Assembly: GCA_947246355.1 (NCBI GenBank)
Contig: CAMXQX010000014.1
Location: 1 to 22,483 of the forward strand
Origin: an uncultured Bacillota bacterium
Lineage (GTDB): Bacteria; Bacillota_I; Bacilli_A; RF39; UBA660
Reading direction: 5' to 3'
Length of the DNA stretch: 22,483 nucleotides
In this document: positions 5,593 to 11,903 of the stretch, piece after piece
Layout of the letters: each line of letters opens with the position of its first letter
How positions within the stretch are numbered: the stretch's first letter is position 1
The notes under the pieces: model-generated
The model's input: the letters and a program-made list of their open reading frames with translations, nothing else
What the model was told of the DNA's origin: nothing
The model's database searches: none
Position numbers and translations under genes: made by a program

Positions 5593-7266
5593 TTAACTCG
5601 TGCTAACAAATACAGGTTTCCAATTTTTTGTACAAATTTGATTATCTGCATTGTCCACTGCACAAATTTGGTATAAAAATATAAATTCACCTGTTGGCGT
5701 AAATACCCAGTCTTCTTCACAAGTAAAAATATTTTCTTTACTCTTTTTGCAAATATATTCTTTGGTTTTTTCACATGTTCCACGGATGCATTTTTTTCCA
5801 AGCATGGTAACTTTACTGACTCCTGCTGTATCAACTACATTAGAAATAATTTCAATATGATGACGCGTATTCCTATCTAAAATTGGCTCTTTTTTTACAA
5901 AGACATCTTGTATAGAAATGGAGGGAGCTGTTTTATCGATCTTAATGATTTTCGTAAGCACTGGGCTGATATTCCCAACAAAATCAATCGCTCTAAAATA
6001 CCGTTTGCTTATTCCTTCTTTCTGTATATGGTACAATTCATTGGCAGAATGATAAGAAAAGTCAAACCAAGTTTTATTGTCCTTTGAGATTTGGTATTTC
6101 CATACCCCACTTCCATAATCCATCGAACCAACAGGATTTGGATTATCTTCCCTATTTGATAAAAATACTTCTTGTTTTGTCCATGTATCGTCTATGTACT
6201 TTGTTCCATCTTGAAGCAGAGCATTCATCGTCGGAACTGTTGGTGCTTTGTTGTCAATTTTTATTTCTGTACTTACACTTGTACTACAATTGGAAAAAAC
6301 ATCACAAGCTCTAATATATAGACGCTGATTTATATCTTCTTTAAAAGGAGGCGTTATGAAAAAACTTTCTTTTATACTAGGATACGCGAACCAATTTTTT
6401 TGATCATAACTATATTCAAAGTGATGCATACCACTACCATCGTCTTGCGCTTCTAATGTTAAACTGATACTTCCTTTCGTCCATTTTCCATTGGATGGAT
6501 TTTTAACTTGTAGCTTTGTTGGCGGCGTTTTATCAATTTTAAATAAGGTTTGTCTCGCCAATGTACTAAATTTTTTTCCATCAAAAGCGATAGCCAAAAA
6601 GGTGGTTTCTTCCTTCGTATCTTGTGCATAAGTAAAGACAACATCTCTATCTATTTTATACCACAAATTGGCAGTTATCTCTTTTGTACTAGTGCCCTTT
6701 ACACAATTTTTAGGCTTTACTGCACTTCCACAGGTCTCCTTTAAAAATACATCACTACTTCCATTTTTTTCTGCTTTAATATAGTAACTGCTATTTTGGT
6801 TATTTTCGCTTGGAAGTTGGACAGAAACAACCTGTTCTTTTAAATATCCTTTTTGCGGCTTGGCTTCGCTTAATAATGTAGGAGGAAGAAGTACAGCCTC
6901 TTCCTTTGTTGGTTTATCTTCCACTTTATCCTTGTTTTCTTGTTGTTCATCATTTTTTACTTTTTCGCTAGAAATTTTGTTGATTTCTGTAATAACGTTT
7001 TCATCTTGTTTTTGAACTCCCGTTTCATTCTCTTGTTTGAAGTCCGTTGTTTGCTTATTATCTTGCCCTTTTTTTACCAATTCTTTTTGCTTTTTATGAA
7101 TATAGGAATTGAAGGAAGAAAAAGAAAAAGAGGCACTATTTTTTAAACTTTCTCTATCTATTGTTTTGGTAAAGTAAAAAAAAGAAGGAATGGCCAAAAA
7201 TATAACCACACTAAAAAAGGTAATTTTCTTTAAAAGAACTTTCCACGTAAATCTCTTTCTATCCAT
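5593..7266 (-). CDS. Membrane-anchored modular surface protein of unknown function
   Basis: ATG 7266 has AGGAGG 7 nt upstream. There is an N-terminal TM helix (ITFFSVVIFLAIPSFFYF) and a low-complexity K/E/Q linker. Three modules of about 100 aa follow, each ending with a KID(K/N)xxP(T/S) boundary (KIDKTPPT, KIDNKAPT, KIDKTAPS), as seen between Ig-like domains. The tail is Cys-rich. I recognise no family. Confidence 0.6.
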   Translation of the reverse strand: MDRKRFTWKVLLKKITFFSVVIFLAIPSFFYFTKTIDRESLKNSASFSFSSFNSYIHKKQKELVKKGQDNKQTTDFKQENETGVQKQDENVITEINKISSEKVKNDEQQENKDKVEDKPTKEEAVLLPPTLLSEAKPQKGYLKEQVVSVQLPSENNQNSSYYIKAEKNGSSDVFLKETCGSAVKPKNCVKGTSTKEITANLWYKIDRDVVFTYAQDTKEETTFLAIAFDGKKFSTLARQTLFKIDKTPPTKLQVKNPSNGKWTKGSISLTLEAQDDGSGMHHFEYSYDQKNWFAYPSIKESFFITPPFKEDINQRLYIRACDVFSNCSTSVSTEIKIDNKAPTVPTMNALLQDGTKYIDDTWTKQEVFLSNREDNPNPVGSMDYGSGVWKYQISKDNKTWFDFSYHSANELYHIQKEGISKRYFRAIDFVGNISPVLTKIIKIDKTAPSISIQDVFVKKEPILDRNTRHHIEIISNVVDTAGVSKVTMLGKKCIRGTCEKTKEYICKKSKENIFTCEEDWVFTPTGEFIFLYQICAVDNADNQICTKNWKPVFVSTS

Positions 7267-7359
7267 TTTCCCGCCTCCTACTTTTCTTTTTTTATTTTAT
7301 CAAAGAAAAAATAGGAAGTCTATATGTGGAAAGCTATTTTTCTAAATATCCTTTTTTAG

Positions 7360-7385
7360 ATAATAAAAAGGAGTAAATTCTCCTT
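7360..7385 (-). terminator. Intrinsic terminator after secG
   Basis: Minus-strand RNA reads AAGGAG-AAUUUA-CUCCUU (6-bp stem) followed by UUUAUUAUC. It begins 21 nt after the secG stop. Confidence 0.5.
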
Positions 7386-7406
7386 ACCTTACAACATTTT
7401 AAACAA

Positions 7407-7616
7407 TTAAAATCCCTGTATAAAACAAATAATAAAATAAATACTTCCAAGAACAAAGGTTGCTCTTGTAATGAAAAGTTCTCCCCCACGTTCTTTTCGA
7501 TTTTTAAAAAGTTCACTATTTGCCCCTGTAAAAATATCTCCTTCTGCCACTTTTCCTGCTTGTAATAAAACAATGGCTATTAATAAAACACATACAACGA
7601 TAAGTACTGTCTCCAT
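7407..7616 (-). CDS. secG: Preprotein translocase subunit SecG
   Basis: 69 aa: METVLIVVCVLLIAIVLLQAGK...LFKNRKERGGE...TFVLGSIYFIICF. It has two TM helices and the VLLQ-GK signature of SecG. The track start 7625 is a GTG inside the SD; ATG 7616 has GAGGTG 6 nt upstream. Confidence 0.88.
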   Translation of the reverse strand: METVLIVVCVLLIAIVLLQAGKVAEGDIFTGANSELFKNRKERGGELFITRATFVLGSIYFIICFIQGF

Positions 7617-7635
7617 CTTATCCACCTCGCTTATT

Positions 7636-7664
7636 AAAATACCATATTTTTAAGTTCTTGTAAA
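7636..7664 (-). promoter_or_regulatory. Candidate promoter for secG
   Basis: Minus strand reads TTTACA (7664-7659), a 17-nt spacer ending in TGg, then TATTTT (7641-7636). It lies in the 76-nt gap between the VWA gene stop and secG. Confidence 0.45.
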
Positions 7665-7692
7665 GGGATATGGTCTTTATTTTCTAGATAAC

Positions 7693-9114
7693 TTATCTCG
7701 TTTTTCCCCTACTATTTAATTTTTCAAGTTGTTCTTGATTGATATAAATTACCCTTCCTCCTTTGGGACTGATTTTCGTATCACCAAATACAATCCATAA
7801 AACGTCTACTTCTTTACTGGGCATAGTAGAACAACCATCTGTAAAAATAATTTTATTTTCTACTCGATTTGTAAAAGCATTCACTGCTACATTAAAATCT
7901 GTTCCACCACCTCCATAGAAAGATAAATTATCAATGTCTGCTTCATTTTTTATTTCTGTAAAACCATAAAACATAGTATCAAAACACCCTACTTTTACCT
8001 TTGAAGTTTGTAAAATATTTTTACATTCTCTTAAAAAATTGCGAAGCAACACCTCATCAATGGAACCACTCGTATCTAGGACAATCTCTGTTTCTGGTCT
8101 TGGTATTTCTTCTAAATAGGTGGTGACAATTCCATCCTCAATCTCCACATTTTCATAAGACCAATCCACATCATACTTTACCGCTTCTTTGAGTAACATT
8201 CGCCAATCCAAAAGAGGTGTGGATGTTCCAATATTGGCTATGGTTCTTACATCACTGTTTGTACTATCACCATGCCCAAGGGCCTCTTTTGCTAGTTCAT
8301 TTTGTAACTCCTCTAATTGTCTTTTTCTCTCTATCCTGTTTTGTTTAAATACTTCTCTCTCTCCTACTTGTACTCGATTTTGCATCTCCTCTTGTTTTTT
8401 CTTTTTACTTTCTAATTCTTGCGTCTTTTCTGTTTTCTCTTCCTCGTGTAATGCTTGCCTCTCTTTTTTTCTAGAAAACATTCGTTTCATCTTATCAAAT
8501 AAATTATCTTGGTTTTCTATTTTTTCTTCCTCTAAACCATTGGTGGCATTTCCCTCTCCTTTTTCTTGTTCCTCTCTTTGTTTTTTTAAAGTTGCCTGCT
8601 TCCACATAGAATGCGTATCGTGCCCCACATCATGGTATTTTTCTGTGCTTTCTTCATCGCCCTTTTGTGAACTCTCCTTTTTCGTATTCCCTTTTTGCTC
8701 TTTTTTCGTATCACTTTGTTGTTCTTTCTTTTCTTCTAGTAGTTTTTGATAGAATCCTTCTGCGTCATAAGCGATGGCCTCGGGAATATCGACTCCTCCT
8801 TTTACTAAAGGGAGTCCATCCTGTTTTAATAAAGCATTAATCACTGCGTCGGTGGCTATATTCCATAATTCAGAATCTTTTCCTTCACTTCTAAATATAT
8901 GATGAAATGCAATATAACAAATCTCATGGGCAAGGATAAATACCTGCTCCTCCCGTGACAGAGAGGACAAAAAGAGAGGATTATAGTATATGATTTCTCC
9001 ATCGGTTCCTGCTGTTTCTACGGAAGCCTCACCCACAAATTGGGTATGCGCTACTATACTACCAAATAAAGGATACTTCACTAAAACTCTATTTATAATG
9101 GTCTCAATATGCAT
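7693..9114 (-). CDS. DUF2201-type protein: N-terminal putative metallopeptidase domain, long charged linker, C-terminal VWA domain
   Basis: Start trimmed to ATG 9114 (MHIETIINRV...), with AGGAG 5 nt upstream and 2 nt after the upstream stop. The N-terminal region YPLFGSIVAHTQF...TAGTDGEIIYYNPLFL...FILAHEICYIAFHHIFR...WNIATDAVIN fits the COG3864/PF13203 pattern. About 150 aa of E/K-rich linker follow. The C-terminus has the VWA MIDAS-like motif VLDTSGSI, plus GGGGTDF and IIFTDG. Confidence 0.8.
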   Translation of the reverse strand: MHIETIINRVLVKYPLFGSIVAHTQFVGEASVETAGTDGEIIYYNPLFLSSLSREEQVFILAHEICYIAFHHIFRSEGKDSELWNIATDAVINALLKQDGLPLVKGGVDIPEAIAYDAEGFYQKLLEEKKEQQSDTKKEQKGNTKKESSQKGDEESTEKYHDVGHDTHSMWKQATLKKQREEQEKGEGNATNGLEEEKIENQDNLFDKMKRMFSRKKERQALHEEEKTEKTQELESKKKKQEEMQNRVQVGEREVFKQNRIERKRQLEELQNELAKEALGHGDSTNSDVRTIANIGTSTPLLDWRMLLKEAVKYDVDWSYENVEIEDGIVTTYLEEIPRPETEIVLDTSGSIDEVLLRNFLRECKNILQTSKVKVGCFDTMFYGFTEIKNEADIDNLSFYGGGGTDFNVAVNAFTNRVENKIIFTDGCSTMPSKEVDVLWIVFGDTKISPKGGRVIYINQEQLEKLNSRGKTR

Positions 9115-9116
9115 AG

Positions 9117-9524
9117 TTACTCCTGCACGTGGGCACATAAGGAATATATTTCTTCATTGATTTTATGCCTATTTAAATCAGAATAAGTAACTATAGGGAA
9201 ACAATTTGTAGGTAAATCGAAGGTACTCACTTTTTTATACTTCAATATCTCAACAAACTTTGTTTGTTCTTCAAGTGCAATTTCATTTATATTTTCAATG
9301 AGTAAAATAACAGAACCCTTTTTACTTTTTTCTATTAATTCTTTATACCATGTTGGTGGACAAAATTCGACATTCTCATAATGTCCATTTAGCTCAAGTC
9401 GATCTATATTTGCACTTATTGCTACCACATTCGTAAAAACAGTCGCAGGAAGATTTTGAATTAATAAGGGAGAAATTCCACACTGTAAGTAGCTTTCTAA
9501 TAAATTAAATCTATCTTTATTCAT
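9117..9524 (-). CDS. Degenerate AAA+ core paralogue (no P-loop) of the upstream ATPase
   Basis: ATG 9524 overlaps the upstream stop as ATGA, with AAGGAGG 9 nt upstream. The 135-aa product aligns by eye with residues about 230-400 of the 9521..11266 product. CPPTWYKELIEKSKKGSVILLIENINE matches VPPTWYIKLKEKCEKEPNKIHIVFFDELTN, DLPTNCFPIV matches RLPANARIVA, and CAHV matches FAHV. The Walker A position reads QNLPATVF and Walker B DE is replaced by EN. Confidence 0.7.
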   Translation of the reverse strand: MNKDRFNLLESYLQCGISPLLIQNLPATVFTNVVAISANIDRLELNGHYENVEFCPPTWYKELIEKSKKGSVILLIENINEIALEEQTKFVEILKYKKVSTFDLPTNCFPIVTYSDLNRHKINEEIYSLCAHVQE

Positions 9525-11266
9525 TTTCTAATTCCTCCTTGGGTATTTTCCTCAGACATTTGTATTTCAAGTAAATACTCTAACCTAGACGTGTCTCCAT
9601 GAACCCACATTGATTCAAAGACAGCTCTTGGTTCTGCACCTAATTGTTTCATAAAATCTCTAACTACCTCAAAATGCTCTTCATCTACAGAAGACAAACC
9701 AGCAGCTGTTGTGAATTTTTGTGCAACATTCATTTCTAAATCCTTCTCTGTGTAATTGTGCTGCAGTACATCCTCAATACGTATAACTTGAAGACTGGAA
9801 AATGCAACAAAGTCTCTTGTTAACTCTTCTCCAATGAGGGCTCGAAGCATTTCTTGCTTTTTCGTTTTATATAATACTTTGGATGCCATCTCCCATTTTC
9901 TTGGGTCGGCATTTGGTTTTTCTCCTGTATAAGGTGTTCTTAATACATCTTGTCCACTATAAGACTTGTAAGCCACATAAGCATAAATGGATGGATGAAT
10001 TTTTGGTTCTACCTTTTCTTCTTGATAGTCCAATCTTTCATAATTTTCTCTTGGTGTAATAGCCCATTTTAACCAGCTATCAACAGTCGTTTGAATATAT
10101 ACATGCGCAAAACGATTAAATAATGGTTCTGCCATTTGATTGGCAGCAAGAGAATCATTCAAATCATTTCCAGCTGCCACAATTCTTGCATTGGCTGGTA
10201 GCCTCCATTTCCCATCCACTTCTCCGTCCAAGACAATGTTAAATGCCATTCCTTGAATACTTGGTAGTGCATTGGTGAGTTCATCAAAGAATACAATATG
10301 GATTTTGTTAGGCTCTTTTTCGCATTTTTCCTTTAGTTTTATGTACCACGTTGGTGGTACATCCATCATTTCTCCCGTTGCAGCATTATATACACTTTTT
10401 CCATTTAAACTGTTTGGTGTTGCATTTCTCATGTATATAATTTCACAGTCTGGATCCAATTGTTTTACTCTTGCGGATTTTCCCTCACTGGATCTACCAT
10501 GTAAAAATACAGAAACATTGCTTTCGATGGCCCCTTTAATGATATCCTCCTCAGAGACACAATTAAAATCAAAATCAAAATCATAAGGATTTTTCCTTTT
10601 TATTCCGCTATCTATATTATTTATTGGCTCTGTATTTTGTAAAATCCTATTAGATACAATCTCTTTAGCAAAACAAGTATCTATAAATTGCTTTATATCA
10701 GTTCTCTCAAAATCCCCTTGGTAATTGTTATTATTCTGAAATTTTACACCTGAGAAAATCAGTTTCTTAGAAAGCGCTATATTGGATACTCTATCTACTA
10801 GCCATGTGATAGGCTCAACCAAAACCCAATAAGCTTTTCCCTCTTCAATTTTTCTTCCATCGGATAGAGTCTGTCCACTACAATTTCCATCCGCTACAAA
10901 ACGAATACACTTCTTTCCATTATATTCGTATTCCATATGTTCTCTTGCCACAAACGAACGACTATACTCTTGATAATTTACAGAGTCCGTTGTATACTTT
11001 TTTCCTGTTCTATTTATCCTATCACTTTGAAATGCACGTTCAAAATCTGCTTCCTCACTGGCACGCAAAATAGACTGTGGATATTCACCATAGTCGACTT
11101 CTATTATTTGACCCCTGCCTCTCACTTCGTTCGAGGAGATGTTTTGGATTAAAGAGTAAGGTAAAGCTGGGCGTGCCCCAACATACCGTAAATTAACATT
11201 GTATAAGTAACCATTCCCATCATTGTCAACAGCGCGCGCGAGCACAAACGGGGCACAAGAGCGCAA
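9521..11266 (-). CDS. MoxR/AAA_5-class AAA+ ATPase with lectin-like N-terminal domain; 5' end uncertain
   Basis: Walker A is FLHGRSSEGKS, Walker B is IHIVFFDELT and sensor-1 is ARIVAAGN, with a helical lid/C-terminal domain. Residues about 55-215 (IIEVDYGEYPQ...YWVLVEPITWLVD...LSKKLIFSGVKF...DIKQFIDTCFAKE) resemble a Firmicutes lectin/FGE-like extracellular-type domain. The track start 11266 is a TTG with no SD. The first in-frame ATG is at 10936, and an SD-like GAGAGGCAGGGG lies at 11123-11112. Confidence 0.75.
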   Translation of the reverse strand: MRSCAPFVLARAVDNDGNGYLYNVNLRYVGARPALPYSLIQNISSNEVRGRGQIIEVDYGEYPQSILRASEEADFERAFQSDRINRTGKKYTTDSVNYQEYSRSFVAREHMEYEYNGKKCIRFVADGNCSGQTLSDGRKIEEGKAYWVLVEPITWLVDRVSNIALSKKLIFSGVKFQNNNNYQGDFERTDIKQFIDTCFAKEIVSNRILQNTEPINNIDSGIKRKNPYDFDFDFNCVSEEDIIKGAIESNVSVFLHGRSSEGKSARVKQLDPDCEIIYMRNATPNSLNGKSVYNAATGEMMDVPPTWYIKLKEKCEKEPNKIHIVFFDELTNALPSIQGMAFNIVLDGEVDGKWRLPANARIVAAGNDLNDSLAANQMAEPLFNRFAHVYIQTTVDSWLKWAITPRENYERLDYQEEKVEPKIHPSIYAYVAYKSYSGQDVLRTPYTGEKPNADPRKWEMASKVLYKTKKQEMLRALIGEELTRDFVAFSSLQVIRIEDVLQHNYTEKDLEMNVAQKFTTAAGLSSVDEEHFEVVRDFMKQLGAEPRAVFESMWVHGDTSRLEYLLEIQMSEENTQGGIRK

Positions 11267-11293
11267 ACACGCAAAAAATAAATTTTCTTCTTA
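11165..11293 (-). other. GC-rich, NNY-codon-rich segment resembling a DGR variable/template repeat (in frame with the AAA+ gene)
   Basis: The frame opens after TAA 11293-11291 and encodes EENLFFACLRSCAPFVLARAVDNDGNGYLYNVNLRYVGARPAL. Region 11231-11272 has 28/42 G+C, including the alternating run GCGCGCGCG. In 11227-11180, 12 of 16 codons are NNY (N/D/G/Y/V). A 14-nt G/C-rich block, GGGGCACGCCCAGC, follows at 11179-11166. There is no ATG or SD. Confidence 0.4.
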
Positions 11294-11318
11294 ATTAAAG
11301 GCTTTTCAACCTAAAATC

Positions 11319-11903
11319 CTATTTTTTCATTTTCCATCTTGCATCATCACTCTTTTTCCAAGCAACGATTAGATTAATTGCCTCTGCAAGTTGCATAGAA
11401 ATCTGTTTGTATTGCTTTTTCAAAATACAGTTGGAGTTGAAAGCAAGCAAGGCCATATACCCTAAAAGTTTTAAGTTAACAATTGCTTCTTTTTGATACT
11501 CTTCTCTTTTGGATTTGTTGTTAGAAGACTCCATTCGAATAAAATTAGCTTTTAATAAATACTCTATCGTATCTAGACAATAATTTTGCATCCGATTGAC
11601 GAAGACACCTCTAAATTTTTTAGGGGATTTTTCTGTTACTGCAATCACATAAGCTTTTAATTTTTTAGTAACGGTAATTACCATTAAATCATTAGCATTG
11701 AAAGGAATTTGGTCTATCACCTTTCTATCCTTGTCTTCTTCTATGAGTCCTATTTTTACTTTTGTTTCATCAAACTTTTCATCCTTAGCCATGGCAAGGC
11801 CTTTCTTTGTTGCAAGAACTTCTTCTATATTGTTTGCTCTTTGTGTTACAATTTCTATTTTTTTGGGGATTTTTAAATGATTCGATCTACTGACTTGATA
11901 CAT
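11319..11903 (-). CDS. Avd-like / 23S-rRNA-IVS-type four-helix-bundle protein with about 80-aa N-terminal extension
   Basis: ATG 11903 lies 16 nt after the fmt stop and is preceded by GAGGTAAGGA. An alternative start is MAKDEK at residue 38. The C-terminal 115 aa (KLKAYVIAVTEKSPKKFRGVFVNRMQNYCLDTIEYLLKAN...KEAIVNLKLLGYMALLAF...KKQYKQISMQLAEAINLIVAWKK) follow the helix pattern and the P-[KR]-K ... A-[NG] ... W landmarks I recall for Avd / PF05635-family proteins. Confidence 0.5.
   Translation of the reverse strand: MYQVSRSNHLKIPKKIEIVTQRANNIEEVLATKKGLAMAKDEKFDETKVKIGLIEEDKDRKVIDQIPFNANDLMVITVTKKLKAYVIAVTEKSPKKFRGVFVNRMQNYCLDTIEYLLKANFIRMESSNNKSKREEYQKEAIVNLKLLGYMALLAFNSNCILKKQYKQISMQLAEAINLIVAWKKSDDARWKMKK

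Follow-up and report, generated by a model that had tools for sequence, protein, structure and literature searches.

The diversity-generating retroelement (DGR) of Bordetella phage BPP-1 carries mtd with its variable repeat (VR), avd, a template repeat (TR) and brt. In gut phages, DGR targets of the DUF6273 family comprise the tentaclins and the small targets of Faecalibacterium (pro)phages (PMC10743442, PMC11792537). In cyanobacteria and Thiohalocapsa, DGR-diversified C-lectin/FGS sensors belong to MoxR-vWA (VMAP-type) ternary conflict systems (PMC7159879, PMC10907252). DGR-diversified intracellular sensors are known in multicellular cyanobacteria and in purple sulfur bacteria, and are discussed as a bacterial analogue of antigen receptors. 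In our literature search, no paper linked DGRs to MoxR in gut Firmicutes, and none linked circular permutation to DGR targets. The present analysis concerns a stretch of 22,483 nucleotides (hereafter, the window) from an uncultured Bacillota bacterium of the UBA660 lineage (assembly GCA_947246355.1, contig CAMXQX010000014.1), whose genome is a 1.34 Mb, 100-contig draft that is 92.7% complete. The window encodes a 581-residue protein that an earlier note, made from the sequence alone, had described as an extracellular-type lectin-like domain fused to a cytoplasmic-type AAA+ ATPase. The front of this ATPase is probably the surviving part of a lectin-like domain that was once rewritten by a DGR, from which the reverse transcriptase (RT) gene and the first 69 residues of the protein were deleted, leaving a frozen relic. 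The parts of the gene, in window coordinates, are as follows.

9521..11266, minus strand: sensor-ATPase open reading frame (ORF), 581 residues, TTG start; truncated
11167..11242, minus strand: fused TR::VR scar of 76 nt, the frozen remnant of a variable beta-hairpin, encoding ...ARAVDNDGNGYLYNVNLRYVGARPA
10640..11113, minus strand: surviving second half of the permuted N-terminal module, ORF residues 52-209, equivalent to the front half of canonical DUF6273
9521..10561, minus strand: AAA+ ATPase core and C-terminal helical region, ORF residues about 236-581

A search of 5.8 billion proteins returned more than 3,000 relatives of this protein, with a typical length of ~645 residues. The question whether homologous ATPases have the same N-terminal domain can be answered in the affirmative, as these ~645-residue relatives carry it together with 69 further N-terminal residues (ORF residues are numbered here on the 581-residue ORF, and full-length residues include the additional 69). 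The extra residues read MNNFTFLTDEQIFG...DFSILLGG...RTGWWWTKS, and are followed by a variable stretch of ~25 residues and then by an invariant GARPALPYS. The variable stretch differs wildly among proteins that are otherwise 72-93% identical, and the 581-residue protein starts inside it.

The relatives were compared as 78 species-level loci drawn from bacterial assemblies, with one genome per species. A near-full-length RT gene lies directly upstream of the ATPase gene in 21 of these loci, accompanied by avd in 17 of the 21, and RT remnants are present in 6 further loci. Across 16 TR/VR pairs, 148 mismatches fall at TR adenines and 8 elsewhere (95% at adenines). In the locus L045, an avd-like gene (5735-6355), the TR (6437-6520), the RT gene (6720-7799; RVT_1, E 1.7e-18) and the ATPase gene (7833-9989) follow one another; the VR (8056-8139) lies within the ATPase gene, and a small paralogue and then a VWA gene are found downstream. 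In L045 and in L056, which has the same avd-TR-RT-ATPase layout, all core TR/VR mismatches are at TR adenines. The VR occupies codons ~66-92 of the ATPase gene in intact relatives. Among 92 full-length proteins, the VR has a column entropy of 2.0 bits and the remainder of the module one of 0.77 bits, and between two full-length genes the ratio of nonsynonymous to synonymous substitution rates (dN/dS) is 3.0 in the VR, with 0.135 in their ATPase cores. Judged from these repeats, the N-terminal module of the relatives, permuted as described below, is a real DGR target. The parallel that had been drawn with lectin-fold sensors on NTPases that serve as DGR targets in other phyla is a literal one, since in relatives the module carries the VR of an adjacent DGR. 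These cassettes share avd, TR, RT and adenine-specific TR-to-VR differences with the BPP-1 DGR. They differ from it in their avd-TR-RT-target order, in the position of the VR near the 5' end of the target, and in the in-frame stops of many TRs, whereas the window copy consists of avd and a fused TR::VR scar only, with no RT.

Stop codons in frame (TAA, TGA, TAG) stand at mutable adenines in 8 of 15 TRs (L088, L091, L096, L099, L100, L106, L107 and L108). By the textbook rule, AAY template codons avoid stops (PMC12875486), and the stop-bearing TRs run against it. Six assembled VRs (L091, L096, L106, L108, L055:379-381 and L046) have a stop at a mutable position, so that the target would be 'off' in these six.

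The host assemblies are mostly gut metagenome-assembled genomes deposited as 'uncultured Bacilli bacterium', together with Coprobacillus sp. CAG:605 and Clostridium sp. CAG:417. In essence the cassette is a cellular one, with 278 loci in bacterial genomes vs. 1 in IMG/VR, and tblastn found no match to it in 50,697 phage records; a phage origin is unsupported by either count. In L045, a large serine recombinase gene and a 473-residue ORF that may be relaxase- or primase-like lie directly upstream of avd (both within L045:2283-5717), and an integrase, a TnpB-like gene and a RhuM gene lie upstream in L002. The cassette may travel on integrative elements.

The N-terminal module belongs to the DUF6273 family, with its two halves in exchanged order. 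Residues 55-215 of the 581-residue ORF correspond to positions 10622-11104 of the window and read as quoted in the earlier note, which had likened them to the front half of a Firmicutes domain family. This resemblance is borne out for DUF6273 by hhalign (96.5%, E 7e-10), the match running over full-length residues 173-260 (ORF residues 112-199, window 10670-10933) and the front part of DUF6273. The query was an alignment of the N-domains of homologues and the target consisted of canonical DUF6273 domains from related genomes, extended upstream of the Pfam boundary; cutting at the Pfam boundary gave E 0.012 for the front half, and the extension E 7e-10. The landmarks EPI.W.V, ALSKK and IKQFMD..F, which had been put forward as family signatures, fall inside the match, while a fourth, YGEYPQ, lies outside the hhalign-supported stretch. 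For full-length residues 14-96, hhalign gives a match to the C-terminal part of DUF6273 at 94-96% probability (E 4e-9 to 1e-7). The order of the halves is thereby swapped, as query residues 14-96 align with template residues 169-240 and query residues 173-260 with template residues 15-114. Because the halves match in reversed order, the module is read as a circular permutant of DUF6273, as had been suggested from the placement of the ARPAL element. Read in this way, the N-domain is a permutant of ~270 residues, of which the ORF in the window retains the rear two-thirds.

The back-half landmarks of DUF6273 (td.a...g, WW.RS, a variable stretch and G.RPAl) are present in full-length relatives; in the ORF at 9521..11266 only the variable stretch and ARPAL are kept, the remainder of the back half being deleted. 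Pfam DUF6273 (PF19789, gathering score 23.5 bits) does not match the 581-residue protein even at E <= 1, and scans with Pfam, NCBIfam and PADLOC found nothing in its N-domain (N-terminal 230 residues). The PF19789 model misses most members of the permuted family: the second module copy of P0003 passes with 27.3 bits, and L045 (17.2 bits) and P0079 (19.6 bits) fall below the cut-off. Relatives of ~910 residues (909-residue homologues among them) carry the module twice, and some of them carry PF19789. These double-module proteins are the tandem intermediate expected on the usual route to a permutation. In P0003, P0004, P0081 and P0107 (~890-940 residues) the whole permuted module stands in tandem ahead of the ATPase, and such proteins may hold two variable repeats, since each copy has its own WW...RPAL stretch.

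The permuted module was found in about 1,900 representative clusters (50% identity), mostly with the match at or near residue 1. This position makes the label 'extracellular-type' doubtful for the family, in whose clusters signal peptides were unscreened; for the 581-residue protein, the claim that there is neither a signal peptide nor a transmembrane segment agrees with a maximum Kyte-Doolittle 19-residue mean of 1.01. Many proteins with the permuted module are stand-alone (270-400 residues), and others are fused to ankyrin, pentapeptide repeats, DUF4116, TelA, LRR_5 or AAA, according to a Pfam scan of 50 long representatives out of 149 (P0121-P0269). The phage DUF6273 targets are members of a homologous family (hhalign 94-96.5% over both halves), with the VR at the same ...G.RPAL end and in a beta-hairpin. 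In contrast to them, the module described here has its halves swapped, is cytoplasmic, is borne on an AAA+ ATPase (Ig-like or tail proteins in the phages), and is cellular.

According to an AlphaFold2 prediction made with a 52-sequence alignment, residues 1-270 of a full-length relative form one compact unit (predicted local distance difference test [pLDDT] 89.4, pTM 0.87), with only the linker 271-290 disordered. The variable stretch corresponds in this model to strands 70-74 and 80-84, a beta-hairpin with pLDDT 91-97. DUF6273 has been reported as C-type-lectin-like. Foldseek found no significant match to the full-module model (best E 0.08 in the PDB and 0.07 in BFVD), no lectin or FGE entry was among the 50 matches listed, and sequence-profile searches of the PDB returned no meaningful relative for either the ATPase family or the module family. 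Given these searches, the lectin/FGE fold is not confirmed for the module, and its lectin label is one inherited through homology to DUF6273.

The structural models also indicate what the window copy would have lost. The missing 69 residues are predicted to supply one compact domain with three of its helices and three to four of its strands; among them are the conserved motifs DFSILLGG and GWWW, from which the chain runs into the hairpin. In a model of the 581-residue protein, pLDDT is 37-51 in the VR remnant; in the surviving half it stands at about 72-92 as far as residue 170 and drops to about 50-66 thereafter.

The evidence that this loss arose within a DGR comes from the two sides of the junction. 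Upstream of the ORF, the window retains the following.

11243..11318, minus strand: spacer between avd and the former TR (TR left flank), whose last 24 nt are codons 1-8 of the 581-residue ORF, including 'LRS'
11319..11903, minus strand: avd-like accessory gene of the former DGR, 194 residues, intact

The avd-like protein matches NCBIfam DivGenRetAVD (NF033474; E 6.7e-8, 32.8 bits, below the 80-bit cut-off) and Pfam bAvd (E 1.2e-4). It is 66-73% identical to the avd product upstream of TR and RT in six intact cassettes (69% for L045; 60% for L056). On its left side, the scar is bordered by 90 nt that can be aligned with the TR-left flank in four intact loci (68-73 identities over 84-88 positions) but not with the VR-left flank; on its right side, the adjoining 90 nt can be aligned with VR-right flanks (65-71 identities over 84-90 positions) but not with TR-right flanks. 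On these alignments, the TR-left flank is joined directly to the VR-right flank. Roughly 1.4-1.6 kb, holding the RT gene and target codons 1-69, are missing at the junction, a deletion for which recombination between TR and VR would account. The interior of the scar is VR-like, with GAC, GAT, TAC, TTA and TAT where related TRs have AAY or TAA codons, so the crossover would lie in the GC-rich 5' constant part, a placement made with the TRs of relatives.

No match to RVT_1 was found in the window or in the 92.7%-complete genome, which also showed no second copy of the TR/VR and no copy of the missing N-terminal 70 residues. A DGR acting in trans in this genome was rejected, there being neither an RT nor a second repeat. 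The 'LRS...ARPAL' element of the earlier note is therefore of mixed origin: ARPAL is a true remnant of the VRPAL of the family, but LRS (residues 1-3) is translated spacer from the TR flank. The real counterpart of WWLRSP is the GWWWTKS of the relatives, which is deleted in this ORF. Likewise, ARPAL is in part a leftover, as had been supposed, though not of a separate preceding copy; it comes from the first half of the same domain, cut by the TR/VR deletion.

The remainder of the protein, and the genes that follow it, constitute the machinery to which the module is attached. A cytoplasmic MoxR-like AAA+ ATPase does follow the domain, as the earlier note had it: the core has a Walker A motif (GRSSEGKS at 257) and a Walker B motif (IVFFDE at 324), and its Foldseek neighbors are MCM (E 1e-7) and NorQ of the MoxR family (E 2e-6 to 8e-6), at TM-scores of 0.40-0.43 normalised by target length. 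Motifs and fold matches agree with the helix-2-insert/MoxR group of AAA+ proteins. Pfam AAA_5 scores 13.6 bits in the 581-residue protein, below the cut-off of 22, and 29.1 bits in the L045 homologue; apart from this and a Sigma54 match, both sub-threshold and both in the core, Pfam finds nothing in the protein. Two genes downstream complete the set.

9117..9524, minus strand: P-loop-less paralogue of the AAA+ core, 135 residues; overlaps the ATPase stop codon
7693..9138, minus strand: DUF2201_N metallopeptidase-like and DUF2201 VWA protein, partner of the ATPase, two genes downstream of it

The 135-residue paralogue has no Walker A motif, and ILLIEN replaces the DE of Walker B. In tblastn it matches the ATPase cores of relatives (26-29% identity, E 1e-5 to 2e-7), and it is kept downstream of the ATPase in nearly all loci. 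The VWA partner (Pfam PF13203, E 1.3e-31; PF09967, E 2e-12) is conserved in 72 of the 78 loci. The order on the minus strand of the window is priA, fmt, avd-like gene, sensor-ATPase, 135-residue ORF and DUF2201_N-DUF2201 VWA gene. Independent assemblies show the same neighborhood, with secG after the VWA gene. A 557-residue ORF between secG and recD2 (window 5593-7266, minus strand) has no Pfam family, and has no counterpart in the locus L052, where recD2 directly follows secG.

The MoxR-vWA systems (Kaur et al. 2020; Dore et al. 2024) share with this family the proposed role of the variable domain as an intracellular 'antigen' sensor. There, either the vWA protein or a separate sensor carries the variable domain at its C-terminus, and the hosts have large genomes and are multicellular. 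Here, on the other hand, the variable domain is N-terminal on the ATPase itself, the RT lies upstream of the target, the hosts are unicellular gut Bacilli and Clostridia of ~1-1.5 Mb, and the partners are a DUF2201 metallopeptidase-VWA protein and a P-loop-less AAA+ paralogue. No VMAP protein was among the Pfam matches in the operon, in a scan that did not include a VMAP-specific model. NorQ-NorD (PDB 9qh4, 9qhd), likewise an AAA+ protein with a VWA partner, is the best compact structural match of the core (12-14% identity). NorQ has neither an N-terminal binding module nor a DGR, its partner architecture is different, and its sequence similarity to the ATPase is negligible.

The surviving half of the module keeps every family-invariant residue. 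Its dN/dS is 0.22-0.37 (0.22 vs. L055) and that of the ATPase core 0.07-0.13, no higher than in the full-length pair, and the 0.08-0.16 of the avd-like gene equals what is seen between intact cassettes. No relaxed selection is detectable in the ATPase, paralogue and VWA genes, all of which are intact. The intactness of these genes, and of avd, implies either that the deletion is recent or that the ATPase-VWA machinery is used without a working sensor. The sensor in this ORF is most likely crippled, judging from the predicted contribution of the missing residues to the fold.

A further state of reduction is seen in a 3.5-kb stretch (window 7406-10876) that is 95.4% identical in L052:2489-5687, and is found also in L053 and L054, with flanks that differ at the DNA level. 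It comprises the 3' part of the ATPase gene, the paralogue, the VWA gene and secG. The L052 ATPase is cut at ORF residue ~131, where it overlaps or adjoins the gene for a serine recombinase, and an in-frame stop divides the VWA gene in two. The stop codon and the further cut suggest an ongoing decay of such relics.

Several points weigh against a DGR target beheaded by one TR/VR deletion and frozen since. The TRs used to place the crossover come from relatives with an identity of only ~72%, and not from the lineage of the window. An independently assembled 2-kb contig, L166, which is 99.85% identical to the window, differs from it at 3 of 1,952 bases; two of these differences are A/G changes within the 76-nt scar, in codons that are AAY in related TRs (AAC AAT AAT vs. 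GAC AAT GAT). The sequence upstream also differs in L166 (L166:1-231 vs. window 11120-11350), findings that one simple deletion would leave unexplained; the 56 nt of L166 that lie upstream of the point corresponding to window position 11294 matched no compared sequence, and no avd end was found there. These differences could stem from another crossover, from heteroduplex repair or from a chimeric end of the contig. Lastly, as the surviving half and avd are without relaxed selection, either the truncated protein is functional or the deletion is too recent for decay to be seen.

There is a lesser, though real, chance that the cassette is a non-functional relic on its way to loss, its ATPase being untranslated after losing its start codon and ribosome-binding site. 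When the 5' end of the ORF was read directly, neither an ATG nor a Shine-Dalgarno sequence was seen, and public gene calls place the start at a GTG at 11245 (574 residues), 7 codons later than the TTG. The further cut in the 95%-identical L052 copy and the split of its VWA gene point the same way, as do the RT remnants in six other species, which imply repeated decay of the cassette. However, four ORFs are intact, the dN/dS of the ATPase (0.07-0.13) equals that of the full-length pair, and assemblies with an overall identity of 99.5-100% have the same arrangement; the overlap of the downstream gene with the ATPase stop codon suggests, moreover, that translation of the ATPase still matters.

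It is distinctly improbable that, despite its truncation, the protein still works as a sensor-ATPase, now of fixed specificity and starting at TTG or GTG in the scar. The family-invariant residues and the dN/dS of 0.22 in the surviving half would fit such a protein, as would the pLDDT of this half (about 72-92 to residue 170, about 50-66 beyond) and a frame that is open from the scar onward. On the other hand, the 69 missing residues hold helices, strands and the DFSILLGG and GWWW motifs of what is predicted to be a single compact domain, the hairpin remnant is modeled at pLDDT 37-51 only, and the first 8-9 residues derive from non-coding spacer.

It is very hard to credit that the junction is an assembly artefact, in which TR and VR were collapsed and the RT gene and the 5' end of the target skipped: TR and VR do share short exact stretches, which can confuse short-read assemblers, and the genome is a draft (100 contigs, 92.7% complete), but of eight contigs carrying the protein, three, assembled independently from other samples, show the identical junction, one of them being only 99.5% identical overall, which indicates that the junction is neither artefactual nor still variable, and the genome holds no RT, second repeat or copy of the missing 70 residues. 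Equally remote is the notion that the module is an ordinary N-domain whose variable stretch was shaped by ordinary drift or positive selection, with no retroelement involved; many loci lack an RT within 6-10 kb and Pfam finds no domain in the 581-residue protein's N-terminus, yet TRs lie upstream in 16 loci with 95% of mismatches at template adenines, RT and avd are adjacent in 17-21 loci, and variation is confined to TR-adenine codons between invariant columns.

The window copy is a beheaded, frozen relic of a DGR target, and the proposal of an intracellular ligand or 'antigen' sensor on an NTPase is right at the level of the family and wrong for this copy. For the family it would follow, by analogy with known sensors, from the evidence for a DGR target; in the window, 69 residues, the native start codon and the RT have been lost and the variable stretch is frozen. 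In intact relatives, as expected from established DGR biology, the RT would copy TR RNA into adenine-mutagenised cDNA that overwrites the VR, and each overwrite would change the binding surface of the module. By the same analogy, the hypervariable module would act as an intracellular sensor, with a protein from a phage or another mobile element as its most likely ligand, and the ligand-bound module would gate the AAA+ ring, which would work with the P-loop-less paralogue and the VWA-metallopeptidase partner.

For about 1,900 clusters, a 'hypothetical protein' N-domain that Pfam misses gains an explanation. Recombination between TR and VR would delete the RT and behead the target in one step, and the resulting scar offers a recognisable signature for annotating fossil DGRs. 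The logic of the DGR-diversified intracellular sensors of cyanobacteria and purple sulfur bacteria would apply here with another scaffold topology (a permuted DUF6273), another fusion point (the ATPase) and another host (small-genome gut bacteria). As a tentative extension of that analogy, a chromosomal DGR that hypermutates the sensor would make it a somatically diversified intracellular receptor, stops in the template would let each rewrite also switch the receptor on or off, and the family may serve small-genome gut Bacilli and Clostridia as an adaptive, anticipatory defence against phages or mobile elements, of which the window would hold a fossil.

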